39,885 nt of DNA from a virus. Taxonomy: Duplodnaviria > Caudoviricetes. The DNA is taken from positions 1 to 39,885 of the IMG/VR virus record IMGVR_UViG_3300016471_000179; one strand, written 5' to 3'. The translations under genes were made by a program, and so were the position numbers. Under the pieces are notes generated by a model. The model made no database searches. It had not been told where the DNA came from and saw nothing but the letters and a program-made list of their open reading frames with translations. Positions 2,339-38,382 of the stretch are shown piece by piece (within the stretch, counting starts at the first letter, position 1; every line of letters begins with the position of its first letter).

Positions 2339-2641
2339 ATGAGTAATATTAAATTATTTCATTTGACAACTGGTGAAGAAATTGTTGGCGATTTACAAGA
2401 AAGTGTAGATGAAACTTATACCATTAAAAATCCATGTGCAATTGGAATTGTACCAACGCATACAGGACAAGTTACATTGAACATGCAACCATGGTTATTG
2501 TTTTCTGATACAAAGTCTGTTACCATCAAAGATTCACACGTTTTATTTACTACTGGTGTTGACATTAAGATTCTAAACAAGTATAATGAGATATTTGGAT
2601 CAGGAATCGTAATTGCTCAACAATCACCGGTAGTTAGATGA
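2339..2641 (+). CDS. Conserved T4-like hypothetical protein (possible Sm-like fold) upstream of gp43
   Basis: KLFHLTTGEEIVG...IKNP..I...PW...Y..IFGSGIV; ATG 2339 follows GGAG (the track's 2303 start overlaps the terminator). Confidence 0.7.
   Translation: MSNIKLFHLTTGEEIVGDLQESVDETYTIKNPCAIGIVPTHTGQVTLNMQPWLLFSDTKSVTIKDSHVLFTTGVDIKILNKYNEIFGSGIVIAQQSPVVR
2559..2587 (+). promoter_or_regulatory. Sigma70 consensus promoter upstream of DNA polymerase
   Basis: TTGACA (2559-2564), 17 nt, TATAAT (2582-2587), 50 nt before the gp43A start. Confidence 0.75.
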
Positions 2642-4080: not shown

Positions 4081-4592
4081 TACAAGAATACGAAGGGGTT
4101 TTACCACCAGAGTTTTGTGAGCATTTGATTCATCGTTTTGATGCCGAAGAGAAAAAAGATCAAAGTCATGATATGTTCATTCAATTAGAGATTGGTCAAT
4201 GGCAAGATGAATGCGAAGGTTTGATTGATGTTGTAAAGCGTATAGGAGAACACTATAGCGCACAATACGATCCGTACAGAATGATGCCACAACGCAGACG
4301 CATAGAAGGCTTTCGCATCAAACGATATGAACCAAACAAGCATAGTTTTCCTTTACATGCTGATGCATCAAGTGCAGAATCATGCACACGGTATCTTGCA
4401 TTCTTATGCTATCTAAACGATAGCGAAGCAGGCACTAAATTTTACATGCCAAAGAATGTGGGCGATTTGACAATTGAAGCGAAACAAGGTAAAATGTTAG
4501 TGTTTCCTCCTATGTGGATGTTTCCGCATGAGGGAATTATGCCAACTGAAAAACGAAAATATATTTTAAGCACATACTTTCATTATGTCTGA
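4077..4592 (+). CDS. 2OG-Fe(II) oxygenase (prolyl-hydroxylase-like)
   Basis: H.D (HAD), YLND...GT.F, G.MLVFPP.W.FPH.G...KY.L pattern. Confidence 0.88.
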   Translation: MIQEYEGVLPPEFCEHLIHRFDAEEKKDQSHDMFIQLEIGQWQDECEGLIDVVKRIGEHYSAQYDPYRMMPQRRRIEGFRIKRYEPNKHSFPLHADASSAESCTRYLAFLCYLNDSEAGTKFYMPKNVGDLTIEAKQGKMLVFPPMWMFPHEGIMPTEKRKYILSTYFHYV

Positions 4593-5676
4593 AAAAACAG
4601 AATTACTTAAACAAAAGAAGCAACTAGAAAATCAAATTTCTAGATACAAGAACCTTCAACTTGCAAAGAAGGTTCAATTGAATTCCGCTTATGGTGCGTT
4701 GGGCAACGAGTACTTTAGATTCTTTGACCTGCGACAAGCAGAGGCAATTACATTTTCTGGTCAACTTTCAATTCGTTGGATTGGTGAACAGTTGAATAGA
4801 TATATGAATAGATTATTGAAAACACAGGATGTTGATTATGTCATTGCGTCAGATACGGATTCTGTATACCTTCATCTTGGTCCGTTGGTTGATATGGTCT
4901 ACGGATCGAAGAATATCAAAGAAGAGAAAATTGTTGATTTCATCGACAAGGCCTGCGCGGAAAAGATTGAACCTTTTATCGACAAGGCGTATGAAGAACT
5001 TGCAAACTACATGAATGCATATGATCAAAAGATGTTTATGAAACGTGAGGTCATTGCAAACACGGGTATTTGGACTGCCAAGAAGAGATACATTCTCAAT
5101 GTGTGGGACTCTGAAGGCGTTCGTTATAATGAACCTAAACTCAAAATGTCTGGCATTGAAGCGGTAAAATCTTCCACACCAGGATCATGTAGAGAGAAAA
5201 TTAAAGAGGCATTAAAGGTTGTTATGAAAGGTACAGAGGCAGAGTTTCATGCATTCAATCAAGCATTCAAAGATGAATTTTCAAAGTTACCATTTGAAGA
5301 TGTAGCATTTCCAAGAGGTGTTTCTGAACTCACTAAATATGAAAGTAAGTCTGATGTCTATCAGAAAGGCACACCGATTCATGTTCGTGGTGCAGTGATA
5401 TATAATAAACTACTTACAGATAGAAAGTTAACCAAAAAATATCAGGCAATCAAAGACGGTGATAAGATTAAGTTTTGCTATATGAAAATGCCTAATCCTA
5501 CACATGAGAATGTGTTATCCGTTTTAAATGTTCTACCAAAAGAATTTAATCTGGAGAAGTATATCGACTACGATACACAATTTGAAAAGGCATATCTAGA
5601 ACCATTGAAAATTATTGTGAACACTTTTGGTTGGAGTGCCGAACCAGTTGCATCACTAAGAGGATTTTTCACATGA
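4585..5676 (+). CDS. 43: Family B DNA polymerase, C-terminal part (gp43B)
   Basis: Motif B KVQLNSAYGALG, motif C SDTDSVY, KKRY, C-terminal clamp-binding-like SLRGFF. Confidence 0.95.
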   Translation: MSEKTELLKQKKQLENQISRYKNLQLAKKVQLNSAYGALGNEYFRFFDLRQAEAITFSGQLSIRWIGEQLNRYMNRLLKTQDVDYVIASDTDSVYLHLGPLVDMVYGSKNIKEEKIVDFIDKACAEKIEPFIDKAYEELANYMNAYDQKMFMKREVIANTGIWTAKKRYILNVWDSEGVRYNEPKLKMSGIEAVKSSTPGSCREKIKEALKVVMKGTEAEFHAFNQAFKDEFSKLPFEDVAFPRGVSELTKYESKSDVYQKGTPIHVRGAVIYNKLLTDRKLTKKYQAIKDGDKIKFCYMKMPNPTHENVLSVLNVLPKEFNLEKYIDYDTQFEKAYLEPLKIIVNTFGWSAEPVASLRGFFT

Positions 5677-6813: not shown

Positions 6814-7875
6814 ATGGGTAGTTTTTTTAATGATTTAGTGGAGCAGTTAAAGGATGAAGACACTAAAATTTTGGCTGACGGTGGCGCTTCTGCTGAATTT
6901 AGCGGTTGCATTGATACTGGCTCATACGCTCTCAACGCTTTGCTTAGTGGAAGTATATACGGCGGAGTGCCAAACAATAAAGTCACCGCCTTTGCAGGTG
7001 AATCGGCAACAGGTAAAACATTCTTTGTGCTTGGAATCGTCAAGCAGTTTTTAGAAGCAAATCCAGAAGGTGGCGTTATCTATTTTGATACTGAAGCCGC
7101 AGTTACAAAATCTATGATGGAACAAAGAGGCGTAGATACTAAACGAGTTGTCATCTCTGAACCTGATACAATTCAAAAGTTTCGCCACACCGCATTACAG
7201 ATCATTGAAAAATATTCTGCACAATCAGAAGCAAAGCGCAAGCCAATGATGATGGTTCTAGATTCTCTTGGGCAGTTGTCTTCCACAAAAGAAATTGAAG
7301 ATACCGCAGAGGGTAAAGAAACCAAAGACATGACGAAGGCTTCTATTCTCAAAGCAACCTTTCGAGTACTCAATCTGAAACTTGCAAAGATTGGTGTGCC
7401 GTTGCTTGTGACTAATCATGTGTACGATGTGGTTGGTGCATACATTCCAACAAAAGAAATGTCTGGTGGTTCTGGTCTTAAGTACACCGCATCAACAATT
7501 GTATTCTTGTCAAAGAAGAAAGATAAAGATGGCACCGAAGTAATTGGTAACATCGTCAAAGGCAAACTTGTCAAATCTCGCCTCACAAAAGAAAACTCTC
7601 AAGTTGAAGTAAAAATTACTTATAGCACGGGTCTTGATCGTTACTATGGTTTGCTTGACATTGCAGAAAAGTATGATATAATCAAGAAAGTATCTACAAG
7701 ATACGAATTGCCTGATGGTTCAAAAGTTTTCGGTAAGGCAATCAACGAAGAACCTGAGAAATATTTTACAAAAGAGGTCCTTGATGCAATCGATGAAGCA
7801 TGTAAAAGAGAATTCTTATATGGACAAGATAGTATTGGATCCTCTACTGAAGAACCTTTGGAGGAAGAAGCATGA
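6814..7875 (+). CDS. uvsX: UvsX RecA-like recombinase
   Basis: Walker [24 protein letters not shown]. Confidence 0.95.
7655..7682 (+). promoter_or_regulatory. Candidate internal sigma70 promoter for gp40/gp41
   Basis: TTGACA, 16 nt, TATAAT with extended TG; lies inside uvsX. Confidence 0.4.
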
Positions 7876-13588: not shown

Positions 13589-16513
13589 ATGAAAAAAGTT
13601 ATAGTTGTTTATGGCGGCGGATTTCAGCCGTTTCATCAAGGTCATATGAGCAGTTATGAGGAAGCCAAACGCGCTTTTCCATCTGCCGACTTTTATGTTG
13701 CATCAAGCAACGATACAAAAGTAAGACCAATTCCTTTTTCAGACAAAAAATTCCTAGCACAACAAGCAGGCGTTAGGGACGATTTCGTTCAGGTAAGACA
13801 ACCTGTAAATCCAGATGAGATTCTACGAAAGTATGATCCCGAAAAAGACATTTTGATTCTTGTGCGAAGTGAACGCGATCCAGTCAAGTACACTAAGAAA
13901 GACGGTTCGCCAGCATATTATCAACCGTTCAAGAATCTAAAGGACTGTAAGCCATTTGATCCTAAGACAGGACATGGTTACATTTTTGTTACAAAGAAGA
14001 AAGATTTTTCTGTTGCTGGACAAGAAGTATTCTCTGGTAGTCAGGTTCGTAAGATGTATTCTGATGCAGATGATGCTAAGAGAGAAGAGATTGTAGATGA
14101 TTTGTATCCAAAAGCAAGTAATCCAGCAAAGGTTAAAAAGTTATTAGATAAGTATATCGGTGGATTAAAAGAGGAGTTAGAAATGGATGAAGCACTCTCA
14201 TTGCAAGGGCGCCGCAAACGCGCAATGCAGGTAAGACGCCTAAGAGCGAAAATGCTGAGAGCAAGAGAACGCGCCATGAAGCGTTTCGCTAGCCAACCTA
14301 CTCTCACCAAGAGAGCAAGAAGACAAGCAGTTACATTTTTAAAACGTAGAATTGGTGGAGGCAAAGCATATCAAACATTGTCACCATCACAGAAAATTTC
14401 AATCGATAAAAAGATTGAAGCAATGAAAGGTGTAATTGGTAAAATTGGTTCTCGTTTATTACCTCAAGTGAAACGTAGAGAGGTACAACGTAGACAAAAT
14501 ATGGCACAAACAGAATCATTGAATTTTAAGTTTACAAATCTTTTTGAAAAACCACAACTTCCGCAAGATACGCATGTTGGAGGTAAAGAAGGAACTCAGC
14601 CATCCAAATATTATAAAGGTCTAGACAAAGAAACAAAAGAAAGACGCGATGCACATTTCAAACGTATGGGTCCAAAGTCAGACTCCGATAAGTCTGCATA
14701 CGCAGATGCGCCAGGCGACAAAGAGGCAAGAGAAAAAGGTATGCCTCAGTCTAAGCACACTCTAAAATTCAAGCAAATGTTTGGAGAAGAAATTGGTAAG
14801 AAAGAATTTTCTCGCTTGGATCAATTGGTTCGCCTTGGTCTTGCCGACAAGACATTGCTATCTACAATTAAGAAAGCAATGCAGAAAATTGAATCGGGTG
14901 ATGCTCTATCAAACAATGAGAGACAGGCAACGCAAAATCTCTTGTCTACCTTGCTTGACATGGTAACAAGCCAAGATCAATTATTCAATCTTGCAAAATC
15001 ATCATTGAGAAAAGAACAATACGAAGAACTTCGCGAAGCAACGTATGTTGGTAATATAGGTATTATAGAACTTGCTAAATTTTATAAAGTAGCAAGTAAA
15101 GAACATATTGAAATGTTTCAAAAACTTCTTGTGACGAAAGATTACAAAAGAGCATGGGCACTTGTTCAAGGTGCAACTGGAATGAAATTACTCGGCAAAG
15201 AATTCAATGAATCTGCGGTTCAGATTTTAGAAAAGGGTGAGTATGATGATTATGAAGAATTCGACGGTCTTGAAATGGCTCAAATTGAAGTTGCAAATCT
15301 AATACAAGATGCAGAATATTTACTTGATATTCTTTCAGAAATGGATGAAGAACCAGAAGCATGGGTTCTTTCTAAGATTACAAAAGCAGTTGACTATATC
15401 GAATCTGTAACAGACTATCTTGAATTTGAAGATGATTATGATTACAATGATGACGAAGAAGATTTTGATTCAGACTATGAAAATGAATCAGAATTTGAAT
15501 TTAGTGATACAGATGTTTATGAAGCATTATCCGATATGTCTAAAGAAGAAATGGGCGAAGAACTTCATGAAATCTATCACGTTCTACATGAAGAAATCGA
15601 AGGTCTGAAAAAGAAAGCAGAGAAGTCTGGCATTGCGTATAGCATTCTAAAGAAAGTTTATGACAGAGGTATGGCCGCATGGCAAGGTGGGCATCGTCCA
15701 GGCACAACACCACAGCAATGGGCATTTGCGCGAGTGAACTCATTCATTACGAAAGGTAAAGGAACTTGGGGCGGTGCAGATAGTGATCTAGCCGCAAAAG
15801 CAAAAGGAAGTAGCAAAAACGAAGCATTTGCACAGTTTGCCGAAACACTAGAATGGGGTACCGATGAGTTGCGTAAGAAATATGCAAGCGATACACCAGG
15901 ACAAACACCTGAAATTCAAGTTGCCAGCCATAGCACTTTAAACAATTTGTTTAAGCAAAACGTAGAAAAAATTAAGAGAGCGCATGATGTGCATGAAGCC
16001 ATTGATTGGCACCTTGACAACAAAGTACCTCTCACAGAAAATGTATATCGCGTTGGTTCTGAAATGTATTTCAAACTGTATCGCGAAGCAAGAAAACTCT
16101 ATAACGAAGGCAAGTTGGAACTTGAAGGTTTAGACAGGTCTTTAATTGAAGAAACCGAAATAGGTAAGTTTGCATTCACTGAAGAAGGGCAGCCTGTACC
16201 ACTTGATTGCCCAATGATTATGGAAGAAGAGGATGAAGATAAAGATCCGCCATTGAACAAACCAAAGCGTGGTGGATCTAAAAAGTTTTATGTATATGTA
16301 AGAAAACCTGATGGTGGTATCAAGAAAGTCACATGGGGCGACACAACAGGTCTATCAGTTAAGTTAGACGATCCAGAAGCAAGAAAATCTTTTGCAGCCC
16401 GTCATCAATGCGATATGCAAAAAGACAAAACAACTGCGGCATATTGGGCGTGCAATACACCAAGATATGCAAAACAATTGGGACTTTCCGGTGGCGGAAA
16501 CTTTTTTTGGTAG
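13589..16513 (+). CDS. 974-aa mosaic protein: N-terminal HxGH (cytidylyltransferase-like) nucleotidyltransferase domain plus multiple small modules
   Basis: VVYGGGFQPFHQGH and SGSQVRK; later modules include an Arg-rich helix, RGMAAWQGGHRPGTTPQQWAFARVNSF and KKFYVYV...ARKSFAARHQC...YWAC. Confidence 0.75.
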   Translation: MKKVIVVYGGGFQPFHQGHMSSYEEAKRAFPSADFYVASSNDTKVRPIPFSDKKFLAQQAGVRDDFVQVRQPVNPDEILRKYDPEKDILILVRSERDPVKYTKKDGSPAYYQPFKNLKDCKPFDPKTGHGYIFVTKKKDFSVAGQEVFSGSQVRKMYSDADDAKREEIVDDLYPKASNPAKVKKLLDKYIGGLKEELEMDEALSLQGRRKRAMQVRRLRAKMLRARERAMKRFASQPTLTKRARRQAVTFLKRRIGGGKAYQTLSPSQKISIDKKIEAMKGVIGKIGSRLLPQVKRREVQRRQNMAQTESLNFKFTNLFEKPQLPQDTHVGGKEGTQPSKYYKGLDKETKERRDAHFKRMGPKSDSDKSAYADAPGDKEAREKGMPQSKHTLKFKQMFGEEIGKKEFSRLDQLVRLGLADKTLLSTIKKAMQKIESGDALSNNERQATQNLLSTLLDMVTSQDQLFNLAKSSLRKEQYEELREATYVGNIGIIELAKFYKVASKEHIEMFQKLLVTKDYKRAWALVQGATGMKLLGKEFNESAVQILEKGEYDDYEEFDGLEMAQIEVANLIQDAEYLLDILSEMDEEPEAWVLSKITKAVDYIESVTDYLEFEDDYDYNDDEEDFDSDYENESEFEFSDTDVYEALSDMSKEEMGEELHEIYHVLHEEIEGLKKKAEKSGIAYSILKKVYDRGMAAWQGGHRPGTTPQQWAFARVNSFITKGKGTWGGADSDLAAKAKGSSKNEAFAQFAETLEWGTDELRKKYASDTPGQTPEIQVASHSTLNNLFKQNVEKIKRAHDVHEAIDWHLDNKVPLTENVYRVGSEMYFKLYREARKLYNEGKLELEGLDRSLIEETEIGKFAFTEEGQPVPLDCPMIMEEEDEDKDPPLNKPKRGGSKKFYVYVRKPDGGIKKVTWGDTTGLSVKLDDPEARKSFAARHQCDMQKDKTTAAYWACNTPRYAKQLGLSGGGNFFW

Positions 16514-16519
16514 AGAAAT

Positions 16520-16786
16520 ATGAATCCATATAATGAAATTTGGTTTGACGGAGTAAAAAAGAGAACATTTTTTGAATCGGTTGACGATAACGAACTTGTT
16601 TGGCATCGTGATCGTAGAGATCGCTATGTTAAAGTTGTAGAATCTAAAGATTGGAAGTTACAGATGGACAATGAACTTCCGATAGATTTAGAAGAAGGTA
16701 AGATGTACACAATCAAGGCTATGCAGTATCACAGAATTTTAAAAGGTAACGGAAACTTAGTTTTAGAAATTAGAGAGGAACTATAA
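16520..16786 (+). CDS. Small cupin-like protein
   Basis: WHRD..DR...W.LQMDNELP...YHRILKG. Confidence 0.6.
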   Translation: MNPYNEIWFDGVKKRTFFESVDDNELVWHRDRRDRYVKVVESKDWKLQMDNELPIDLEEGKMYTIKAMQYHRILKGNGNLVLEIREEL

Positions 16787-19700
16787 TGGATAAAATGTCA
16801 AGCAAATTTGGTTTGCCAGAATCATTACTTGATGCGGTCAAGAAGATTCAAACTGAAGAAACTGAATATCAGATGAAAGTAAAAGCCTTGATGAAAAAGA
16901 AAGGCATTACTTCATTAGGTCAGTTATCGCCTGATGAAAAGAAAGCATTCTTCAGTCAATTAGATTCTATGCATCAAGCAAAAAATGAAGAATTCGGTTT
17001 GTCTGAAGGTATGCTTTCTAAGTTTAAAAAGGCAGACGCCCAAACAAAAACTGATTTCAATAAGTATAATATGAAACCTTATGATGCAGTTTATACTGTG
17101 ACAATGGGCGATAAGGGCGAACCAAAATATGATTTGACAATTCTCAAACATGAGAATGGTAAGTTTTTAGCGGCACACGGATCAGTTGTTGTGAAACAAG
17201 AATTCTCTAAAGCAGAAGATGCGGCTAAATGGTTGATGAATTGGTACGAAGAAAATAAACGACCAGCAGCAAAGAATGAAAGCGTAGAGGAGTCCACTGG
17301 GGTAACAGATTACAATCCAAAAAGTCAGGGCGGCACACGAAAAGAATTAATTGCAAAGTATCACAAGACTAAGAATCCTAAAGATGCTGAGGCTGCTAGA
17401 AAGGCTGGTGCGACACAAAAAGAACTTCAGAGTGAAGAAGTTGAAATTGATGAAATGGATAAATCTCAACCTTCATCTAGTCGTGGCGCTGAAGGACTTC
17501 CAACTGGAAAGAAGGCAACTCCAATTACAGTCGATAAAGTTAAAAATGATGCATTAAAGGCGTTGCAACGAAAATACAAAACTGAAGATATGAAATCTGT
17601 TGCAAGTGAGATTGAAACTTACGCAATGAAACATGGCGGTATTGACAAAGCAGATATGATGAAAGTTGCAAATCTCTTGAAAATGGGTAAAATGAGTGAC
17701 GCAAAGAAAAAAGTTATGTCAATGGATACTGATCCTAGAGATTTTTTACTTGATAAAATGAAAAAACTTAAGATTGATGAAGCATCAAGTCAATATAAAA
17801 TTAAAAGTGTAGGAAAAGATGCAAAAGGTGACTATCACATTGATCCAAAAACTGGTGACAAAGTTTATGGCAAGGCATCTGTAGGCGACCATAAAAATCC
17901 TAATACAGGAAAAATTACATCTAGCAAACCTAAACCAAGTTTTATGGAAGAAAATGAACTTGAGGAGTCTGGTGATATGGGACCTGTAAACAGAGGTAAA
18001 GAAAAAACTGTAATGATGCGTCATAAGACTTCAGGTAAAGAAATTGTTGTTGTTCCATCTGGAGTTAAAGAAAAAGAAAAACTTGGTTTTGTCGTAGTCA
18101 AAGAAGAAAAACATCCAGAAGATGTAAAAACTTCTGCAAATAAAATGGAGCCTGAAGGCACAAAAAAGTGGTTGGCCACTCACGCAACGCATCTTAAATA
18201 TTTGAAACAAGTCAAGAAAGACAAACTTCAAGAGGCGGAGGGTGGCGGCACTTCAATTTCAAACATTAAATCGGACGCACAAGGTGCGCTTAAAAGGGCA
18301 GAACTTTTAAAGAAATCGGCAGAACTGCGTCTGCAACATGCACAAGAACGTCAATCACTTTCAAAACAAAAAAAATCATTAAGCAAGGAGCAGGTTGAAT
18401 TTATTGATGAAGAATTTTCTGATGCTCAATTAGCAAAGTTACGCGCAGAATATGGTAAACTTAACACCATTGATCCATCCAGCGATAATTATAAAAAATT
18501 GACTGCTATGCTTGATAAAATGGATAAGCAAGCACTTACAAAGATTGCCGGCGCAAATATCAAATTCATGTCTGGACTTGCAAGAAATCGCGTCAATCGC
18601 ATGAAGAACGAAGAAGTGGAAGAACTAGATGAAACTCCAAAGGTTGATCAAGGACTTTCTGGTAAACAAAAAGTTATGGCAAGAGCCTTAAGAAGAGATG
18701 ATTCTCCCATTATAAATGTAGGAAATACTACAGGTGGACAATGGAGAGGTAAAACTTCTCCTTCACCATATAAAGATAGTAATGTTGCTAAATCTGGCGA
18801 ACGCAAAGGTATGATTACTAAGTCAGCGATCCAAAGAACTAAAGATGCAATTAAATCCAGATTAAATAAGTTGAAGAAAGAAGAAGTTGAAATTGAAGAG
18901 GGTAAGTCTAGCACAGGCTATGAACTCTATCACAAAGATTTTTCTTCGGCAATGGCACATGCATATGACTTTGCAAAGAAAAAATATAACATTGAAATTG
19001 ATCCATTTGAGATTGATCGCAAAGTTGCAATGGGTCCTAAGAAGCCATCTTCAGGCAAATCAAATGCATATCGCTTGTTAGATAAGACTGGTAAAAAGGG
19101 TGTGCAGATTCAAGTCGCAAATCTTGATGATAAGAGATATGAACTCAACATGTATAAAGAAGAGATTGAAATGAATGAGGTCAAAGTTGGCGATAAAGTC
19201 ACTTTTGATCATGAAATGACCGCGGCTCCAGGCAGAACAACAAAGAAATCTGGAATCATTCACAAGATTGAAGGTGATGTTGCACATGTAAAAGTAAAAG
19301 ATAAGTATGGCGTAATTGTGCATAAGAAAAAAATGAGCGAACTTCAAAATGAAGAGATTGACCTTGAAGAAAAAGTTGTCAAAGGCAAAGGCTACGACAA
19401 TCCAGAGAATGAGCGTAAAGGTCCGGAAGGAAAAATACCGATGACAAGTCTCATGCCTGGTCATAGTGATAAGGCAGCACGATTCGCCGCAGTGCAAGCA
19501 AAAGGTACATTAGTCAAAGGTAAAGCACAAAGCGCACCACAAAAGGCGCCTCAAAAAGAGGCGGCCGATGCACCTGAATTTAAACAAGGTGGCGACAAAT
19601 TAGCAAAGAAGTTTGAAAAGGCTTTCGCTAAGATGGGGTTAAAAACTAATATCAAAATGAAAACAGTTGACAATGTTTCTATTAACGAAAAAGAAGAAGG

Positions 19701-19809
19701 AAAAAAAGATAAAGAGGCGTCAGCAAAGCAAAAGGCAGTTAAGAAAGGCGAAACACTAAGCGGTAAGCAAGAACCTATTAAGATTGATCCAGAGATTAGC
19801 GACAAATAA
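16786..19809 (+). CDS. 1007-aa Lys/Glu-rich mosaic protein, putative internal head polyprotein
   Basis: Modules separated by recurrent EE(V/I)(E/D)(I/L/M)xE linkers; located in the late region. Confidence 0.6.
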   Translation: MDKMSSKFGLPESLLDAVKKIQTEETEYQMKVKALMKKKGITSLGQLSPDEKKAFFSQLDSMHQAKNEEFGLSEGMLSKFKKADAQTKTDFNKYNMKPYDAVYTVTMGDKGEPKYDLTILKHENGKFLAAHGSVVVKQEFSKAEDAAKWLMNWYEENKRPAAKNESVEESTGVTDYNPKSQGGTRKELIAKYHKTKNPKDAEAARKAGATQKELQSEEVEIDEMDKSQPSSSRGAEGLPTGKKATPITVDKVKNDALKALQRKYKTEDMKSVASEIETYAMKHGGIDKADMMKVANLLKMGKMSDAKKKVMSMDTDPRDFLLDKMKKLKIDEASSQYKIKSVGKDAKGDYHIDPKTGDKVYGKASVGDHKNPNTGKITSSKPKPSFMEENELEESGDMGPVNRGKEKTVMMRHKTSGKEIVVVPSGVKEKEKLGFVVVKEEKHPEDVKTSANKMEPEGTKKWLATHATHLKYLKQVKKDKLQEAEGGGTSISNIKSDAQGALKRAELLKKSAELRLQHAQERQSLSKQKKSLSKEQVEFIDEEFSDAQLAKLRAEYGKLNTIDPSSDNYKKLTAMLDKMDKQALTKIAGANIKFMSGLARNRVNRMKNEEVEELDETPKVDQGLSGKQKVMARALRRDDSPIINVGNTTGGQWRGKTSPSPYKDSNVAKSGERKGMITKSAIQRTKDAIKSRLNKLKKEEVEIEEGKSSTGYELYHKDFSSAMAHAYDFAKKKYNIEIDPFEIDRKVAMGPKKPSSGKSNAYRLLDKTGKKGVQIQVANLDDKRYELNMYKEEIEMNEVKVGDKVTFDHEMTAAPGRTTKKSGIIHKIEGDVAHVKVKDKYGVIVHKKKMSELQNEEIDLEEKVVKGKGYDNPENERKGPEGKIPMTSLMPGHSDKAARFAAVQAKGTLVKGKAQSAPQKAPQKEAADAPEFKQGGDKLAKKFEKAFAKMGLKTNIKMKTVDNVSINEKEEGKKDKEASAKQKAVKKGETLSGKQEPIKIDPEISDK

Positions 19810-30383: not shown

Positions 30384-31153
30384 AAAAATATAAAAGTATT
30401 TTTATTAGTGATGTACACCTTGGAACGAAAGATTGTAAAGCAGAATTTCTAAATAATTTTCTAAAGCATAACGATTGCGAAACGCTTTACTTAATTGGCG
30501 ACATAATTGATGGATGGAAAATACAACAAAATAGATGGCGATGGAAACAAAGTCATACGAATGTTGTACGCAGAATCTTGGGTCATGCAAAGCGAGGCAC
30601 AAAAGTTATTTACGTTGCAGGAAATCATGATGAGTTTTTAAGACCATTCATACCATATGGAGTATCTTTTGGTAATGTTGAAGTGTGTAATCATATAACT
30701 CATGTAGGTGCTGATGGTAAAAAATACTTAGTTGTACATGGAGATTTGTTTGATGGTATTACAAGACTTGCGCCATGGATTAGTTTTTTAGGCGACAGGG
30801 CTTATGATATAATTCTAGGGTTCAATACTAAATTCAACTGGTGGAGGCATAAATTTGGATTCGGCTATTGGAGTTTATCTAAGTATCTTAAGCATAAAGT
30901 CAAGCGGGCTGTGGATTTTATTTTTCAGTTTGAGCGCAATCTTACTGACTATGGCCGTAAGCGTGGTTTTGACGGGGTTATTTGTGGACACATCCACAAA
31001 GCAGAAATCAAAGAGATCAACGGAATCATCTACATGAATGATGGTGATTGGGTTGAATCATGCACCGCACTCGTAGAACATCACGATGGCAGATGGGAAA
31101 TTGTACAATGGAATAATATATTAGATGAAAACAGTTCTAATCATAACGGATAA
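30353..31153 (+). CDS. LpxH-like metallophosphoesterase, PlcP (phospholipase C)-type
   Basis: FISDVHLG, GDIIDGW, GNHDEFLR, HGD.FD, CGHIH, NDGDWVESCTALVE. Confidence 0.85.
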   Translation: MGRRMGQSSIKKYKSIFISDVHLGTKDCKAEFLNNFLKHNDCETLYLIGDIIDGWKIQQNRWRWKQSHTNVVRRILGHAKRGTKVIYVAGNHDEFLRPFIPYGVSFGNVEVCNHITHVGADGKKYLVVHGDLFDGITRLAPWISFLGDRAYDIILGFNTKFNWWRHKFGFGYWSLSKYLKHKVKRAVDFIFQFERNLTDYGRKRGFDGVICGHIHKAEIKEINGIIYMNDGDWVESCTALVEHHDGRWEIVQWNNILDENSSNHNG

Positions 31154-32123
31154 CCTTGCGAATCAAATCAATGGCGTTGTTACGACATACAAAAATATTG
31201 AAGCGTGTGCGATTCGCGATGGTTTTCGGTTCGTTTATATTACTCCCAATGAGTTCCGCTACTTTGATTGTCCTATCTACAACGAAGTCAAGATTGCCTA
31301 TCCAAGGAAAATGGGCGAGAAGATTGAGAAGATATGTCCGGATCATATCCATATCGCCACAGAGGGTCCTGTGGGTTTGTGGGCTAGAGCATATCTTACA
31401 AAACATGGTTATCGCTACAATACTGCTTACCATACTAAGTTTCCTGAAGGGCTGAAAACTCTTGCTGGAATCCCAGAATCTTTGACATGGCTATATATTA
31501 AGTGGTTTCACAGACACACTGGTAAAGTTTTATCGACAACCCAAAGTATGGTTGATCAATTAAAAGAAAAGAAATTAATTGCCGATATCGTACCATGGAC
31601 AAGAGGTGTAGACAGAGCAATATTCAATTCATCATATCGTAACAAAAAGGATAAAGTCATAGATTTATTATGTGTTTCTCGCGTAAGCAAAGAAAAAAAT
31701 TTAGAAGATTTCTTTGAATTAAAATATTCAAATGCTCGCAAGACTATGGTTGGTGATGGACCAATGTTAGAGATATATAAGAAGAATTATCCTGATGTCA
31801 ATTTTGTTGGATTTAAAGTAGGAAAAGATTTAGCAGAATATTTTGCAAATGCTGATGTATTTGTTTTTCCAAGTAAATGGGAAACTTTTGGTATTGTGAT
31901 GATTGAAGCAATGGCATGTGGTACTCCCGTTGCCGCATATCCTACACAGGGACCTATTGATGTTATTGATGAAGAATTTACTGGATATATGAGTATTGAT
32001 TTAACTTTTGCAATTGATAAATGTCTCATGCTGAATAGAAAGATTGTGGAAGAAAAAAGTTTTCGTTGGAGTTGGGACGAAGCATGGAGTATATTTAAGA
32101 ACAATTTAGTTTCCATAAAATAA
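31125..32123 (+). CDS. GT4 glycosyltransferase (Agt-like glycolipid synthase)
   Basis: TD....QINGVVTT, IHIATEGPVG, YHTKFPE, RGVD, RVSKEKN, ETFGIVMIEAMACGTPVAA. Confidence 0.88.
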   Translation: MKTVLIITDNLANQINGVVTTYKNIEACAIRDGFRFVYITPNEFRYFDCPIYNEVKIAYPRKMGEKIEKICPDHIHIATEGPVGLWARAYLTKHGYRYNTAYHTKFPEGLKTLAGIPESLTWLYIKWFHRHTGKVLSTTQSMVDQLKEKKLIADIVPWTRGVDRAIFNSSYRNKKDKVIDLLCVSRVSKEKNLEDFFELKYSNARKTMVGDGPMLEIYKKNYPDVNFVGFKVGKDLAEYFANADVFVFPSKWETFGIVMIEAMACGTPVAAYPTQGPIDVIDEEFTGYMSIDLTFAIDKCLMLNRKIVEEKSFRWSWDEAWSIFKNNLVSIK

Positions 32124-32137
32124 CTAACGGAGAGAGT

Positions 32138-32341
32138 ATGACAACAGGGTACAAATTATATTGCGAATCATGCGGAGAAGATTCTTACGTTGAACTAAAC
32201 AAACATCCAAAATATTGTCCATCGTGTGGTGCAGAAATTGATGATACAAATGTTGCTGAAGAAGAACTTGATGATATTGATGAAGAATGGGAAAAACTTT
32301 CAGAACAGTCTTTACGCGATTTAGACGATGAGTGGGAATAA
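32138..32341 (+). CDS. Small zinc-ribbon protein with acidic tail
   Basis: CESC...CPSCG. Confidence 0.7.
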   Translation: MTTGYKLYCESCGEDSYVELNKHPKYCPSCGAEIDDTNVAEEELDDIDEEWEKLSEQSLRDLDDEWE

Positions 32342-32898
32342 TTTTGATTTATGCAGGAATTGATTATTCTATGACATCTCCAGCAATCTGTCTATATAAT
32401 GATGTTGCTGGAGAATTCACTTTTGAAAATTGTAATTTATATTTCATGACACAAACAAAAAAGTACGAAGTTTCATTTAAGAATGTAAGTGGTCAATATT
32501 TTGAATATGCAAATGAGATGCAAAGATATGATATTATTTCTAGTTTTTTTATTGATCGAATTCTGGAGACCTATGAACCCACCAAAGTTTTCATAGAAGA
32601 TTATTCGATGGGGTCAAAAGGTCGTGTGTTTAACATCGCAGAGAATACGGGCGTATTGAAATATAGATTTTTTCAATTTCACATTCCTTTTGTAACTGTA
32701 CCACCAACAGTCATTAAAAAGTTTGCCACAGGTAAAGGCAACTCAAATAAAGAAAAATTACAAGAAGTCTTTGAACAAGAAAACTCTATTCGATTGAAAG
32801 AAGAGTTAAACATGACAGAAAAGCAATGGAATCCTTCGTCGGATTTAATTGATGCCTATTATATTTGCAAATATGGATACTCTAATGAAAATGGATGA
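32332..32898 (+). CDS. RuvC-like (RNase H fold) nuclease
   Basis: GIDYSMTSPA, FIEDY, IAENTG, PT.IKKFATGKGN..K, D..DAY. Confidence 0.8.
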   Translation: MGIILIYAGIDYSMTSPAICLYNDVAGEFTFENCNLYFMTQTKKYEVSFKNVSGQYFEYANEMQRYDIISSFFIDRILETYEPTKVFIEDYSMGSKGRVFNIAENTGVLKYRFFQFHIPFVTVPPTVIKKFATGKGNSNKEKLQEVFEQENSIRLKEELNMTEKQWNPSSDLIDAYYICKYGYSNENG

Positions 32899-33502
32899 AG
32901 ACAAAAACCCTTTTGCTGGTCTTTTTGATAATAAGATCATTGATGCAAAACCAGTCAGTAACTTAATCACAATATATCTCTCAGGAGAAATAGGAACACC
33001 AGAAAAATACATTGGTTGCATTGATGCAATTCGAAATGCTGGTGAACATGATATTGTTCGCATACATCTTAATTCGCCTGGCGGCGATTTATTTACAACA
33101 ATTCAGTTTATGAGAGCAATTGTTGAAACTCGCGCAATGGTAGTCGCTTCAGCAGAAGGCGCATGTATGTCTGCGGCAACAATGTTATTTTTGTGTGCTG
33201 ATCGATATGAAATTTCAGAGCATTGTTTATTCATGTTTCATAACTACTCTGGTGGCACATTTGGCAAGGGTGGAGAAATGTATGATCAATTAAAGCATGA
33301 AAGAAAATGGTCAGAAAAAATTATTCGAAAAATATATAGTAAGTTCTTGACTGAGGATGAAATTTGTAGTATACTAGAAAATAAAGATATTTGGATGGAA
33401 GGTGAAGAAGTTTTAAAGAGACTTGAAAAAAAATCATCTCCAGTTGAATCGCCTTCTAAAAGTAAACCATCAGCGAAAAAGAAAATTCCGCCCAAAAAAT
33501 AA
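32885..33502 (+). CDS. ClpP-family serine protease
   Basis: IHLNSPGG, CMSAAT (catalytic Ser), FMFH, D.W. Confidence 0.85.
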   Translation: MKMDEDKNPFAGLFDNKIIDAKPVSNLITIYLSGEIGTPEKYIGCIDAIRNAGEHDIVRIHLNSPGGDLFTTIQFMRAIVETRAMVVASAEGACMSAATMLFLCADRYEISEHCLFMFHNYSGGTFGKGGEMYDQLKHERKWSEKIIRKIYSKFLTEDEICSILENKDIWMEGEEVLKRLEKKSSPVESPSKSKPSAKKKIPPKK

Positions 33503-33517
33503 ATAAGGTCATATATT

Positions 33518-34345
33518 ATGTATCATTTGAAATTCAATTTTTATCACATAGGCGATCAAATCGCAACCACTGCTATGCCAGAAAACATTCACAACGTAAC
33601 TGGTGAGAAATGTATCATTTCAGATAAAAGAATTTGGGCGCTCAAACATAATCCTTATGTTGTCTTCATGGATGAAGAAGAAGCAAACAAGCATCCCATG
33701 ATCAGTTTGATTCCAGACTGTAGAATACAAGAACAAGTAAAGCAATACGCAGATATAATGAAATGTCCAATCTCAAATGGACAGACCGAATACATGTGCA
33801 TTCAATTAGGTTTCAATAATGTTCATCTAAGACATTCCCGCCTTTACATTTATGAAGACGAAAAGATTGTACCAAATCGAATCGTTGTTCACACCACAGG
33901 TTCAGATAGAACACGCGATGGTGAAATCGCAATTCGGACCACATCAGGAGAAGATGATGTTCGTATCATGTCCGATGATGTTATCAATTCTATTTTAAAG
34001 AACTACGAAGATTATGAGATTATTCAGATTGGTGGTGATAACGATAAGCCTCTTGGTGGCAATAGCACAAACCTCTGTGGCAAATTAGACTATTGGGAAG
34101 TCGCAAAACTCATCGCAGGTTCGGCAAAATTCATAGGCGTAAACTCAGGGCCAATGCACATTGCAAATTGTTATCCTAGAGTAGAAAAGAGAATCGTTCT
34201 ACAAGAGTTTCCAATTGATACGTTGATGACATACAAAGCAGGTGACATACGCAATTGGCTATTCTCTTGGATTGATCCAACATGCACTTTCTTTAATAAA
34301 TTTGACCACGATGTAGGCTATACCTACTCACATAAAAAACTATGA
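33518..34345 (+). CDS. GT9-like (heptosyltransferase-type) glycosyltransferase
   Basis: IGDQI N-terminus, IIQIGG, FIGVNSGPMHIA. Confidence 0.65.
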   Translation: MYHLKFNFYHIGDQIATTAMPENIHNVTGEKCIISDKRIWALKHNPYVVFMDEEEANKHPMISLIPDCRIQEQVKQYADIMKCPISNGQTEYMCIQLGFNNVHLRHSRLYIYEDEKIVPNRIVVHTTGSDRTRDGEIAIRTTSGEDDVRIMSDDVINSILKNYEDYEIIQIGGDNDKPLGGNSTNLCGKLDYWEVAKLIAGSAKFIGVNSGPMHIANCYPRVEKRIVLQEFPIDTLMTYKAGDIRNWLFSWIDPTCTFFNKFDHDVGYTYSHKKL

Positions 34346-35094
34346 AAAAAATTACAGTTGTCGTTGTAGGCAATACGCATCAAAAGGGTATGCGTTTTGC
34401 AATTGATAGAACATTAGAAAATACACCTGATGTCGAAAGTGTTTTACAGGTTGGCAATATACCTCTTGGATATGGTCATCATGTTTACATTCGAGACAAT
34501 TTCAATGTTGATGATTACAGTTACTTCATGATCAAGAATCTATGGGCACACATTAAAACAGAATTTGTGCTTGTCGTTCAATATGATGGTATGGCGGCGA
34601 ACAAGTTAGCATGGTCAGACGATTATTATAATTATGATTACATTGGTGCACCATGGCCTGATCGATTCACATGGATTGGCGCAGATGAGAAAGTTGGCAA
34701 CGGCGGATTTAGTCTTCGTAGTGCTAGATTGTTAGAAGCATTGCGTGATCCGTTCATCAAACTTGATACTAATAGCAATAGACTACGAAATGAAGATGCG
34801 GTAATTTGCCAAGGGCATTCTTCGTTTCTAAGAAAAAAATATGACATTAAATTTGCCACCATAGAAGTGGCAAACAAATTCAGTCATGAGTGGTGCAATC
34901 CTACAGGGGAAACATTTGGTTTTCATGGTGCATGGAACTTTCCGTTGTTTTTTGACGAAGATATTTGCCTGAAATATCTACTTGACATTCCAAAAGAACA
35001 CTGGTATAATGATAAACTACAGATGCTAGAAATGATCTGTAGGAAAAAAGATTATGGCAAACTATGGAATGCAATTATGCATAAGGTAAAATGA
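34342..35094 (+). CDS. Putative glycosyltransferase-like protein (DUF5672-like, from memory)
   Basis: QYDG, YDYIGAPW, VGNGGFSLRS, ED, FGFH. Confidence 0.7.
   Translation: MKKITVVVVGNTHQKGMRFAIDRTLENTPDVESVLQVGNIPLGYGHHVYIRDNFNVDDYSYFMIKNLWAHIKTEFVLVVQYDGMAANKLAWSDDYYNYDYIGAPWPDRFTWIGADEKVGNGGFSLRSARLLEALRDPFIKLDTNSNRLRNEDAVICQGHSSFLRKKYDIKFATIEVANKFSHEWCNPTGETFGFHGAWNFPLFFDEDICLKYLLDIPKEHWYNDKLQMLEMICRKKDYGKLWNAIMHKVK
34982..35010 (+). promoter_or_regulatory. Sigma70 consensus promoter
   Basis: TTGACA, 17 nt, TATAAT with extended TG, upstream of 35091 and the small-ORF array. Confidence 0.7.
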
Positions 35095-35378
35095 TTGACG
35101 TACTACGACCTACGGCGGAATGGATTAGAGATGATTGGAATTCAAATAAGTTTCGTTTCTTAGCAGAATTACTTGCATGGGCAATTTCAATTGGATGTGC
35201 AATTACTATGGCACTTACTGTACCAAATCCGCCTCTTCTTGCTTTGTATCCTGCATGGATAACTGGATGTGCTATATATGCTTGGGCTGCATGGACTCGG
35301 AAATCTTTTGGCATGTTGGCTAACTATCTCTTGTTGACAACCATTGATAGTGTTGGGTTGGTAAGGATGTTAATGTGA
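35091..35378 (+). CDS. Small three-TM membrane protein
   Basis: Hydrophobic 95 aa, R.SFGMLANY. Confidence 0.7.
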   Translation: MIDVLRPTAEWIRDDWNSNKFRFLAELLAWAISIGCAITMALTVPNPPLLALYPAWITGCAIYAWAAWTRKSFGMLANYLLLTTIDSVGLVRMLM

Positions 35379-35614
35379 AAGAAAGTATCATCAAAGCCGG
35401 ACTCGATTCTGGCATGTTAAATTATGTTGATAATGAGACACCGAGGCAGTACTTCATTTCGCATTGGGCAGACGAAGAATGCTTGGAACAATTCGCAGAC
35501 TTGCTTATCCAAGAATGTTGTGCTATAATTAAAGAGTGGAAAAAGGAACCTTTTCCATTCGATGAAGACTTGGCAGTGTCTCTTCTTAGAGAACATTTCG
35601 GAGTGGAAGAATGA
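35375..35614 (+). CDS. Divergent array paralogue 1
   Basis: EQFADLLIQECC...EHFGVEE. Confidence 0.75.
   Translation: MKESIIKAGLDSGMLNYVDNETPRQYFISHWADEECLEQFADLLIQECCAIIKEWKKEPFPFDEDLAVSLLREHFGVEE
35501..35529 (+). promoter_or_regulatory. Candidate promoter at the head of the array
   Basis: TTGCTT, 17 nt, TATAAT with extended TG. Confidence 0.5.
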
Positions 35615-35799
35615 ACGAACGAATTAGAGAACTTGCTAGACATGCAGGATTCGAATTGAACCCTGCACACTTTGATCATGAAAAGTTCGCCGAGTTGATT
35701 GTAGAAGAATGTGCTAATGTCGCCGATGAGAATTACATTCATCGCGGAAGTAGAACTTGTGGGCTAGCGATTAGACTACATTTCGGAGTTGAAGAATGA
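35611..35799 (+). CDS. Array paralogue 2
   Basis: MNERIRELA...EKFAELIVEEC...HFGVEE. Confidence 0.85.
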   Translation: MNERIRELARHAGFELNPAHFDHEKFAELIVEECANVADENYIHRGSRTCGLAIRLHFGVEE

Positions 35800-35960
35800 G
35801 TAAATTCAGTGAATTACTTGAAGAATATCTAGACGAGCGTGATCGCCAAAATAGCGATTACTATGATAACCGATATATTGGTTCCAAAATTCAAGGCAGA
35901 GAATTGATGCAGGAACTAGCGAAAGCAATGGATAAATTGATTCATGGAGTTGAAGAATGA
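35796..35960 (+). CDS. Unrelated 54-aa ORF in array (not in track)
   Basis: MSKFSELLEEYLDERD...KLIHGVEE; ATGA overlaps at both ends. Confidence 0.75.
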   Translation: MSKFSELLEEYLDERDRQNSDYYDNRYIGSKIQGRELMQELAKAMDKLIHGVEE

Positions 35961-36301
35961 ACGAACGAATTAGAGAACTTGCTGAACAGGCTGGATTGAA
36001 AGTAAATGCAGATGGCGAAATTGGACCTGCTTTCTTTGGTTCCATTGATGCTGGATACAAAAAGTTCGCCGAGTTGATTGTTCAGGAATGTGCTGATGTT
36101 GGTTCTAAATTTAGTCAAGCACACCCAGAAGATATTCGTTATCAGATCAAAAGACATTTCGGAGTTGAAGAACCTAAAGGTTATCAACCTACAGGTTGGG
36201 TGTGCCCAAAATGTGGCACTGATAGAACCAAGGCCGCTTGTCCTCGTGGCCGTGGAGCAGCAACAGATGGTAGTTGCCCTATGTTTGGAGTAGCACAATG
36301 A
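35957..36301 (+). CDS. Array paralogue 3 with C-terminal Cys-rich (CxxC) extension
   Basis: HFGVEE continues in frame into GWVCPKCG...C...C. Confidence 0.85.
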   Translation: MNERIRELAEQAGLKVNADGEIGPAFFGSIDAGYKKFAELIVQECADVGSKFSQAHPEDIRYQIKRHFGVEEPKGYQPTGWVCPKCGTDRTKAACPRGRGAATDGSCPMFGVAQ

Positions 36302-36510
36302 ATACAATTAGATTATGTAAAAGAGAAGTAGAGCGAATTCGAGAACTGTTTGACACCATACATCAAACCGGTAATGTTGGGTTTGTCACTCTTACTCGAG
36401 ACGCAGAGGACTCTGGTATTGGCTATGAACTTAGAGCCACCTTTCAGATTACTCACAAAGACACAGATGGTGATTTTGTTGTAACTATCACTGACCATAG
36501 AGATTGGTAA
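36298..36510 (+). CDS. Hypothetical protein, paralogue of 38815-39039
   Basis: SGIG...G.F...ITD.R.W; ATGA overlap at 36298. Confidence 0.7.
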   Translation: MNTIRLCKREVERIRELFDTIHQTGNVGFVTLTRDAEDSGIGYELRATFQITHKDTDGDFVVTITDHRDW

Positions 36511-36511
36511 T

Positions 36512-36730
36512 ATGAACGAACGAATTCGACTACTTGCTGAACAGGCTGGATTGAAAGTAAATGCAGATGGCGAAATTGGACCTGCTTTCTTTGGTTCCAT
36601 TGATGCTGGATACAAAAAGTTCGCCGAGTTGATTGTTCGGGAATGCTTGTTAAAAATTGAGAATGAGCGGTTTGAACTTCCTGATTTTATTATTGATAGC
36701 GTCAAACAACATTTTGGAGTTGAAGAATGA
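36512..36730 (+). CDS. Array paralogue 4
   Basis: MNERIRLLA...KKFAELIVREC...HFGVEE. Confidence 0.85.
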   Translation: MNERIRLLAEQAGLKVNADGEIGPAFFGSIDAGYKKFAELIVRECLLKIENERFELPDFIIDSVKQHFGVEE

Positions 36731-36894
36731 AACAGTATAATGTCTGGTATGGTGCGGTACCTTTTCAAAACAAAACTTTTAGGTCTTGGAAAGAGGCAGT
36801 GGCTTTTATGAAAGAACAATTGGATGCTGGTGTGATTGTGCGATCAGTAACAAAAGAGGAAGTGGAAGAAGAATATTTTGGATTTGAAGAATGA
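36727..36894 (+). CDS. Unrelated 55-aa ORF in array (not in track)
   Basis: MKQYNVWYG...EEYFGFEE; ATGA overlaps at both ends. Confidence 0.7.
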   Translation: MKQYNVWYGAVPFQNKTFRSWKEAVAFMKEQLDAGVIVRSVTKEEVEEEYFGFEE

Positions 36895-37160
36895 ATGAAC
36901 GAATTAAAGAACTTGCCGAACAAGCATGGCGTGCTGCCTCTGACGAAGTAGCACATCTCATCCGTGTTCATAATAGGTCATATTCACAGGATGAGATCAC
37001 AGATATTTTTGAAATTAAATTCGCCGAGTTGATTGTTAGGGAATGTGTCGAAGTATGTGGTTCTGTTGCGGCAGTTAGAGCAGGATATCACGATGCAGAT
37101 GGTAGAGATACAGCAGATTCTTGTGGTGATCAGATTAAAGAACATTTCGGAGTTGAATGA
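36891..37160 (+). CDS. Array paralogue 5
   Basis: MNERIKELA...KFAELIVREC...HFGVE. Confidence 0.85.
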   Translation: MNERIKELAEQAWRAASDEVAHLIRVHNRSYSQDEITDIFEIKFAELIVRECVEVCGSVAAVRAGYHDADGRDTADSCGDQIKEHFGVE

Positions 37161-37372
37161 TGAACGAACGAATTCGACTACTTGCTGAACAGGCTAAAGC
37201 AGAATCTAACCAATGGCTTGGTAGTAAACCTGCAATTACAATAACATACGATGAGTTGGAAAAGTTCGCCCTGTTGATTGTCCGGGAATGTGCTAATAGA
37301 ATAGATTATTGGGAATCAAGACAGGGCGAACATTCTGATGATTTACTAAAACATTTCGGAGTTGAAGAATGA
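37157..37372 (+). CDS. Array paralogue 6
   Basis: MNERIRLLA...EKFALLIVREC...HFGVEE. Confidence 0.85.
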   Translation: MMNERIRLLAEQAKAESNQWLGSKPAITITYDELEKFALLIVRECANRIDYWESRQGEHSDDLLKHFGVEE

Positions 37373-37491
37373 CCGAAGGTGACCGAGCAGGTTGGTGGGC
37401 CGTTGTATATCTACTTATGGTAGGTGTGGCCGCTTATTTCACTATGTTTATGGTCATTTTCAGTTTTATTAAACAAATGTTTTGGAGTTAA
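37369..37491 (+). CDS. 40-aa single-TM peptide in array (not in track)
   Basis: MTEGDRAGWWAVVYLLMVGVAAYFTMFMVIFSFIKQMFWS. Confidence 0.7.
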   Translation: MTEGDRAGWWAVVYLLMVGVAAYFTMFMVIFSFIKQMFWS

Positions 37492-37494
37492 AGA

Positions 37495-37704
37495 ATGAAC
37501 GAACGAATTAAAGAACTATTATGTCAAGCATATGATCAAGCGGTGCCAGAAACTTGGACTACACTTTCTTCTGAACAATTAGAAAGAGTGTATGAAAAGT
37601 TCGCCGAGTTGATTGTGCGTGAGTGTATCGCCAATTGTGATGACTTGAATAGCATGAAGTATATTGCTGATCACTTTGGCATCAAGATAGAGGGTTTGGA
37701 ATGA
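37495..37704 (+). CDS. Array paralogue 7
   Basis: MNERIKELL...EKFAELIVREC...HFGI. Confidence 0.85.
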   Translation: MNERIKELLCQAYDQAVPETWTTLSSEQLERVYEKFAELIVRECIANCDDLNSMKYIADHFGIKIEGLE

Positions 37705-37955
37705 ACGAACGAATTCGAGAGTTGATGATGCAGAGTTGGAATACCTATTACAATGAAGAAGTAAATGGTACACGGTTTCCAGTTGTGCAAAAATTTGATG
37801 CAGAAAAGTTCGCCGAGTTGATTGTTCGTCAATGCGGTTACTATGCTGATATTTTTGAAGCGGTAGGTTGTCCAGATGACATGGATCCAACAGAAACCAA
37901 ACCCAGTGATTATATTAAGAGACATTTTGGAGTTGAGGAATGGCAACTTTTATAA
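37701..37955 (+). CDS. Array paralogue 8
   Basis: MNERIRELM...EKFAELIVRQC...HFGVEE. Confidence 0.85.
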   Translation: MNERIRELMMQSWNTYYNEEVNGTRFPVVQKFDAEKFAELIVRQCGYYADIFEAVGCPDDMDPTETKPSDYIKRHFGVEEWQLL

Positions 37956-38173
37956 AGGCCTTGGTAGAAAATCCATATTATTTGAGGGACTGTGATCTTG
38001 GTCAATATGGTGATTATAAGTCTGCTAGATATTTCAACACACATAATCAGGAACAATATCTTCCTTTAGATGTTATCCTAGACGATGGTATCTACTACCC
38101 ATATTTTAATAGAGAGCAAATGACCCCTATTTGGCGTGGAATGAAAATAAAACATTTCGGAGTTGAAGAATGA
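37940..38173 (+). CDS. Unrelated 77-aa ORF ending in the array's C-terminal box
   Basis: MATFIKALVENP...KHFGVEE. Confidence 0.75.
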   Translation: MATFIKALVENPYYLRDCDLGQYGDYKSARYFNTHNQEQYLPLDVILDDGIYYPYFNREQMTPIWRGMKIKHFGVEE

Positions 38174-38382
38174 ACGAACGAATTAGAGAACTTATGATAC
38201 AATCCAATCCCGATGGTGATTTTTCGGAAGTTGAATGGGTGCTTGAAAAGTTCGCCGAGTTGATTGTTCGGGAATGTGCCAATCAATGTGACTTATTGTT
38301 GGATCATAAAATAAGTTCAGAATGGTCAAGAGGAACACACGATTGTTCCAGAGCGATTAAACAACATTTTGGAGTTGAATGA
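38170..38382 (+). CDS. Array paralogue 9
   Basis: MNERIRELM...EKFAELIVREC...HFGVE. Confidence 0.85.
   Translation: MNERIRELMIQSNPDGDFSEVEWVLEKFAELIVRECANQCDLLLDHKISSEWSRGTHDCSRAIKQHFGVE

Follow-up and report, generated by a model that had tools for sequence, protein, structure and literature searches.

The phage array at 35375-38382 carries a genuine duplicate of one variable segment (V1): a 107-nt repeat whose two copies lead into unrelated second segments (V2a and V2b). The duplicate belongs to an array built from conserved boxes. We consider it probable that the V1/V2 pairings arise by general homologous recombination inside these boxes, and that the products are early proteins predicted to bind host targets. 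The window analysed here is the entire contig of 39,885 nt, which is approximately 24% complete as a virus genome; the sequencing runs containing this phage are labelled freshwater, lake or aquatic.

The array consists of eight full genes ordered box A-V1-box B-V2-box C, together with a divergent member and five unrelated passenger genes; all lie on the + strand and nearly all overlap stop to start. The boxes are 22-45 nt long, coding and in frame. Four of the five passengers end in box C, which holds a GGAG ribosome site about 8 nt before the next ATG as well as the stop/start overlap for the next gene. A sigma-70-type promoter at 34982..35010 (+), scoring 12/12 against the consensus and with an extended -10, is likely the early promoter of the array. 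Across related loci, a site of 11-12/12 lies at most 2 kb upstream on the coding strand in 75/106, compared with 3/106 on the other strand and 10/131 shuffles.

The array opens with the divergent member (35375..35614), in which boxes A and B are eroded and box C is intact, and which aligns with the V1 of an L141 gene and of protein P0087. Family gene 1 (35611..35799) is followed by a passenger with a terminal box C (35796..35960), copies of which stand at 96-98% behind another V2 in loci L141 and L148. Family gene 2 (35957..36301) comprises box A, V1, box B (36062), V2a and a box C (36155) that is read through into a Cys4 zinc-ribbon-like tail (36176..36301; Pfam Zn_ribbon_10 reaches only E 0.014, below the cut-off). 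Beyond a further passenger (36298..36510), with relatives at 84-99% in L137, L043 and L141, family gene 3 (36512..36730) consists of box A, the same V1 as gene 2, box B (36617), V2b and box C (36710). The remainder of the array is formed by a passenger ending in box C-like sequence (36727..36894), family gene 4 (36891..37160), family gene 5 (37160..37372), a passenger flanked by two box C copies (37369..37491), family genes 6 (37495..37704) and 7 (37701..37955), a passenger with a terminal box C (37940..38173) and family gene 8 (38170..38382). Copies of the 37369 passenger at 93-94% end at the same boxes in L230, L238 and L242, and the V2 of gene 8 is found at 89-92% beside other V1 segments in L001, L025, L063 and L215.

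The original prediction had reported that 35977-36083 and 36532-36638 are identical. Exact-match comparison verifies this, with a maximal exact match of exactly 107 nt in which each copy (35977..36083 and 36532..36638, both +) takes in the end part of box A, V1 and most of box B. It is the longest exact repeat of the 39,885-nt window, the next longest being 36 nt. The identity does start in box A, but 20 nt after the ATG, inside the box and not at its end as had been stated. The V2 segments downstream are indeed unrelated, with translations and peptides as quoted in the prediction, and the 5' end of gene 36512 matches that of gene 37160 over 36 identical nt. Counted from the ATG, genes 35957 and 36512 differ at 4 of their first 134 positions (offsets 15, 18, 19 and 127) and are unrelated beyond.

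A misassembly had been named as a danger for this repeat, and the duplication is upheld by the assembly graphs of three runs and by a second assembly, evidence made of contigs and graphs in which no single piece covers the whole stretch. Each of the Logan graphs of runs X2, X3 and X5 represents the repeat by a single contig of exactly 107 nt, whose depth is close to the two downstream branches added together: 20.8 vs 13.1+12.5 in X2, 27.4 vs 15.5+11.2 in X3 and 31.6 vs 8.1+26.4 in X5; the fourth graph examined, that of run X8, contains parts of the repeat region only. The layout recurs at 99.9% identity, with SNPs of its own, in contig OGWB01000023.1 (L149/L152), and the two window proteins are recorded on 15 and 16 contigs. 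At 31-mer resolution the way from V1 to V2a is a single unbranched path; that from V1 to V2b rests on the larger assemblies because it crosses a 31-nt word shared with 38246.

Other V1/V2 pairings, proposed as something to look for in related phages, proved plentiful. In protein sets selected by the window's own segments, of which 332/388 proteins were parsed, the window V1 alone is found in 53 proteins, joined to 39 V2 kinds, and its identical core in 21 proteins, joined to 11 V2 kinds. Conversely, V2a is found in 49 proteins with 31 V1 kinds and V2b in 32 proteins with 20. A third swappable module is the Cys4 tail seen in gene 35957, which follows 43 V2 kinds, joined at box C. The boxes build new fusions beyond the family too: in P0130 and P0173 this tail is attached to unrelated passenger genes, in P0130 exactly at box C.

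An unselected set was built from 431 parsed profile hits (326 unique), 343 ORFs being dropped as unparsable; the 290 genes from 160 loci that were kept yield counts describing typical members only. They comprise more than 200 kinds each of V1 and V2. Among pairs of genes sharing V1, 7/126 also share V2, and 7/126 of those sharing V2 share V1, while 43/43 V1 kinds and 34/37 V2 kinds seen twice have at least two partner kinds. V1/V2 pairing is near-free, although a residual linkage persists (5.6% of same-V1 pairs share V2 vs 0.3% at random). In 84/118 pairs with the same V1 and different V2, the V1 segments are less than 90% identical, which places them in separate genomes and not in one assembly graph. 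Segment exchange crosses phage lineages: one complete phage of 169 kb carries V1 at 90-91% DNA identity, while its RecA-type protein reaches only 32%. Both segments evolve under purifying selection, with dN/dS of 0.12-0.13 for V1 and 0.15-0.16 for V2, whether pairs are defined by protein or by DNA. The pattern of the window recurs in three other arrays (L196, L230 and L242; 3/160 loci), each with two copies of one V1 or V2 whose partners differ.

The boxes are conserved at the DNA level. Across 183 genes found by peptide pattern, in loci of 34-55% GC, silent sites within the boxes are fixed: AAG is used at 0.92 vs a background of 0.29, GCC at 0.85 vs 0.19, GAG at 0.88 vs 0.19 and CGA at 0.87 vs 0.18. 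At most diagnostic box positions the preferred silent codon reaches 0.76-0.98, with background use of 0.15-0.33. As for the near-identical segments that other loci share with the window, 79/82 of their ends fall inside boxes, which represent 34% of the array (the rows overlap and are not independent). Together with the pairings and with loci L141 and L151, these box-bound ends give strong support to the central proposal of the original prediction, namely that segments are shuffled by crossing over within the conserved boxes.

The history of the locus can be followed in some detail. Locus L141 carries the block running from box B to box B (36059..36636, +; V2a, tail, passenger, box A and V1) with 1 difference in 578 nt, preceded by another V1 and followed by another V2, both joints falling in box B. 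L144 contains 36512-36636 at 100% behind a different upstream sequence, and the 36-nt 5' allele also begins genes in L056 and L229. As the passenger, the 36512-type 5' allele and V1 travel together in L141, and L144 likewise carries the allele with V1, the 37160 copy is not needed as a donor of the 5' end of gene 36512. That gene had been read as the recent chimera: it is recombinant at box B, but gene 35957 is equally recombinant when set against L141, and which copy is newer cannot be told. Nor can the direction of the event be fixed, since V1+V2a also occurs elsewhere (P0121 and P0122). P0003, present on 2 contigs, joins V1 and V2b behind a 35957-type start, a combination that is also the expected product of assembly collapse.

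The sister strain L151, with 30 SNPs in 6.1 kb of flanks, shows two box-to-box deletions. One removes gene 35611 (C to C); the other removes 36637..37616 (+, B to B) and creates a new V1 + V2(37495) gene, P0016, found on 3 contigs, all of one source. Both junctions lie inside exact 22-nt box matches, such as short-word assemblers can misjoin. Run X2 contains a minor branch of depth 2.7 from V1(37495) into another V2, and branch depths are uneven in runs X5 and X1; rough as these depths are, they suggest mixed arrangements within samples. In X5, over 36054-37164, the V2b branch is three times as deep as that of V2a (26.4 vs 8.1), which suggests that a genotype lacking the V2a block is common in this sample. 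Recombination was predicted to be ongoing, which is likely in view of the near-identity of the segments and the existence of a sister strain, rather than from reads. Most simply, the window layout could have arisen when two genomes bearing V1, one with a V1 gene after the 35796 passenger and the other with an L141-type block, underwent a single out-of-register crossover at box B. By an equivalent route, a 555-nt unit would have been inserted as a circle into a V1+V2b gene, and P0003 would represent the empty site.

Boxes of one type keep the same position in the frame throughout the copies, and a crossover between like boxes should therefore give an in-frame and still translationally coupled gene. 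Crossovers from A to A and from C to C would move whole genes and passengers, those from B to B would swap half-genes, and read-through of box C would add a tail. Homologous recombination at the boxes would also keep them uniform. The enzyme would likely be a UvsX/RecA-type machinery acting during co-infection. The window and 4/5 carrier genomes contain RecA-type genes; that of the window (6814..7875, +; TIGR02012 E 5e-26, below the cut-off) encodes a RecA-family protein with no link to the array, a candidate strand-exchange enzyme that we take to be UvsX from the T4-like gene order. The replication genes of the window are altogether T4-like and also include a family B polymerase in two pieces and a DnaB-type helicase, the T4 names being presumptive.

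Searches for a dedicated machinery were negative within their scope. Phage_integrase matched 0/5 carrier genomes (3 complete, the window genome being outside this set; control 14/14) and the reverse transcriptase model RVT_1 matched 0/5 genomes (3 complete, the window fragment included; control 3/14). No recombinase or reverse transcriptase was detected among 64 neighbours scanned, and no neighbour family is conserved (the commonest occurs in 19/252 loci). A helicase search of five fragment genomes gave no match and carries no weight. From the lack of an integrase, a reverse transcriptase, an A bias, a conserved neighbour or a hairpin, and from the presence of RecA-type genes, we infer general homologous recombination. 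The idea of a hairpin was rejected. Box A and box B look like imperfect inverted repeats, but whole-gene folding gave z-scores of 0.21 and -0.21; 20-42% of synonymous recodings pair as well as the consensus A-B duplex; and for A-B and B-C pairing on both strands 9-46% of recodings are as good (RNA energies only). Pairing of boxes within their own gene was compared with pairing across genes, with 17/200 permutations. For T4, homology of less than 50 bp is cited as enough for recombination (PMC2839356). Stretches of 22-30 nt are short for RecA-type exchange, and a targeted helper may be coded elsewhere in the genome, of which the window is a 24%-complete fragment.

Other explanations have to be weighed against general recombination at the boxes. 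It is hardly credible that the duplication and the many pairings are artefacts of assembly graphs misjoining at boxes of 22-36 nt. Common assemblers use 21-nt words, which the boxes exceed in length; Logan contigs break at boxes, and the L151 junctions and P0003 resemble misjoin products. However, in 3/4 runs the depth of the 107-nt node roughly equals that of its two exits added together, all 8 genes recur in the same layout in a second assembly with its own SNPs, and Logan proteins P0005, P0013, P0034, P0039, P0049 and P0054 pair V1-type segments with different V2. The V1 alleles have moreover diverged, and misjoins cannot produce silent-site fixation. A local tandem duplication or gene conversion in this genome alone, followed by divergence of V2, is likewise very improbable. 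It would suit the identical V1 copies 555 nt apart and the 36-nt match to 37160, and L196, L230 and L242 have comparable within-array duplicates. Against it, V2a and V2b are unrelated despite V1 being 100% identical, each occurs with 20-31 other V1 kinds, and the intervening block is found in L141 with other partners. Intragenomic events do contribute, as in L151, yet they cannot supply segments, and the evidence already speaks against them as the only cause.

A dedicated site-specific or templated system acting on the boxes, whether integron-like, DGR-like or based on an unknown recombinase, seems unlikely to us. The boxes are letter-for-letter constant across distant phages, as recognition sites are, and their length is low for general recombination. 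On the other hand, neither Phage_integrase (5 carriers) nor RVT_1 (5 genomes), nor a conserved neighbour or hairpin was found, identity stops at many offsets within box B, and three different boxes are in use. It is possible, although we rather doubt it, that shuffling is a neutral by-product, the boxes being kept as translation signals and homogenised repeats and the specific V1-V2 pair being irrelevant. This explanation has the same recombination mechanism and differs only on selection for pair diversity. Near-free pairing implies little selection on particular pairs, box C/A is the ribosome site and start region, and unrelated passengers are carried by the same boxes. But the V segments are under purifying selection as protein, and box B, which lies mid-gene and has no role in translation start, is equally fixed.

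Comparison with known systems of module exchange helps to situate the array. PeSL cassettes of T4-type phages are reportedly the subject of work by Comeau et al. in 2014 (PMC4122927). According to Arbiol et al. 2010 (PMC2839356), PeSLs are intergenic motifs of a promoter plus a stem-loop that move whole genes in T4-type phages, and their mini-circles have been demonstrated. PeSLs and the boxes of the array alike are short repeats placed in the early, variable regions of T4-type phage genomes; recombination between them deletes or inserts unknown ORFs, and in neither case was a dedicated recombinase found. Repeat-to-repeat deletion and insertion of ORFs is observed here in assemblies, through L151, L141 and the passenger ends in boxes, and mini-circles, shown for PeSLs, are possible for the array. 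Unlike PeSLs, the repeats of the array are coding, in frame and three per gene, and half-genes and tails are swapped besides whole genes. A sigma-70 promoter at each repeat is absent, the one 12/12 site being upstream of the array; inside it, each strand has a single 9/12 site and the minus strand also has a 10/12 site, and the sites found number 15 vs 20.9 in shuffles. Stem-loop terminators at each repeat are also absent: the 5 terminator-like sites (3.0 expected) do not recur at the boxes.

The gp38 adhesins of T2/T6-type phages diversify by GRM/HVS shuffling, with exchanges in or near conserved motifs, according to the corresponding study (PMC3157838). As in that account, conserved motifs of the array form a frame separating hypervariable segments, and swaps take place at conserved in-frame motifs. 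In contrast to gp38, a single virion adhesin that has glycine-rich motifs and draws on a limited set of segments, the array family is multi-copy and made of acidic helical proteins of about 75 aa, with early-type promoters and boxes that are helical and not glycine-rich. A DGR differs from the array, which shows no reverse transcriptase and no A-specific changes: A takes part in 56% of allele differences and T in 54%, and the segments differ in length and are unrelated. Like the array, DGRs and integrons produce many variants of small modules at a single locus, or many arrangements of them. Unlike an integron, the array has no attC-like hairpin and no IntI-type tyrosine recombinase was found (0/5 carriers, 3 complete, the window genome being outside the set). 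The array works like PeSL and gp38 exchange but lacks the defining features of both, as well as those of DGRs and integrons.

The protein family is large. A profile search retrieved 8,762 clusters at 50% identity, the family occurs on approximately 3,400 viral stretches, and five large phage genomes hold 2-18 matches each. Members have a median of 76 aa and 95% are net acidic. In AlphaFold2 models (pLDDT 88.7 and 78.0) the boxes form three helices, V1 a hairpin-bearing loop and V2 a helix extension plus a loop; the homodimer prediction scores 0.25. The family has no PHROG and no NCBIfam or Pfam match above the cut-off, no meaningful PADLOC match and no match in the cultured phages searched. 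ESM Atlas matches are unnamed viral clusters only, and those of BFVD are uncultured Caudovirales or unnamed entries. Neither structure model has a PDB match at E 0.001, and the best VIA structure comparison reaches Z 4.7; novelty of the fold does not follow from missing structural matches. A full-text literature search, with most subscription journals and supplements outside its reach, retrieved no description of the family. Family genes also lie on 21 GTDB MAG-contig loci (L153-L173) labelled Bacteroidota, Actinobacteria, Burkholderiales and others, one of them (L170) being a 183-kb contig in a Haliscomenobacter MAG. These loci are probably phage DNA binned with hosts or bystanders and their labels span several phyla; no host is therefore assigned.

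The function of the family can be approached from its early context, size, charge, copy number and the selection on its inserts only. On these grounds and on the models, we tentatively propose that the three boxes may build a constant three-helix frame displaying V1 and V2 as target-binding parts, in acidic early proteins dedicated to host takeover or counter-defence. A broader and more speculative idea, about which we remain doubtful, is that distant lineages of freshwater phages share one recombinase-free combinatorial protein library. The DNA of the three-helix frame would double as crossover and ribosome site, two (sometimes three) binding modules would be selected independently, half-gene swaps would assemble two-headed adaptors or inhibitors of host proteins, and the present locus would have captured one swap almost unchanged. 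The family evolves by exchanging half-genes at fixed in-frame joints, which leads directly to new phage proteins and helps to explain why so many phage genes appear unique. The locus supplies a near-intact event with named parent and product alleles (the window, L141, L151, P0003 and P0016), and such matched allele pairs make the mechanism and the separate roles of V1 and V2 testable. A natural small frame tolerating hundreds of inserts may also serve as a protein scaffold.

Several other features of the window deserve mention. The family B DNA polymerase is split over two ORFs (480 and 363 aa; 2638-5676), both matching polymerase models, and between them sits an unrelated 171-aa gene (4077-4592) whose product, judged by eye, we take to resemble a 2OG-Fe(II) oxygenase. 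This T4-like phage also carries a Dps-like gene at 936-1391 (NCBIfam DpsA E 4e-14, below the cut-off). Two large proteins of 974 and 1007 aa are encoded at 13589-19809; the sole match of the former is N-terminal and cytidyltransferase-like, and the latter has no NCBIfam match. Over 1-39885, the sigma-70 sites of 11-12/12 number ten on the + strand and none on the - strand, several of them lying among the replication genes. Directly upstream of the array (31125-35094) are glycosyltransferase-like genes, a RuvC-like gene, a ClpP-like gene and a DUF5672 gene.
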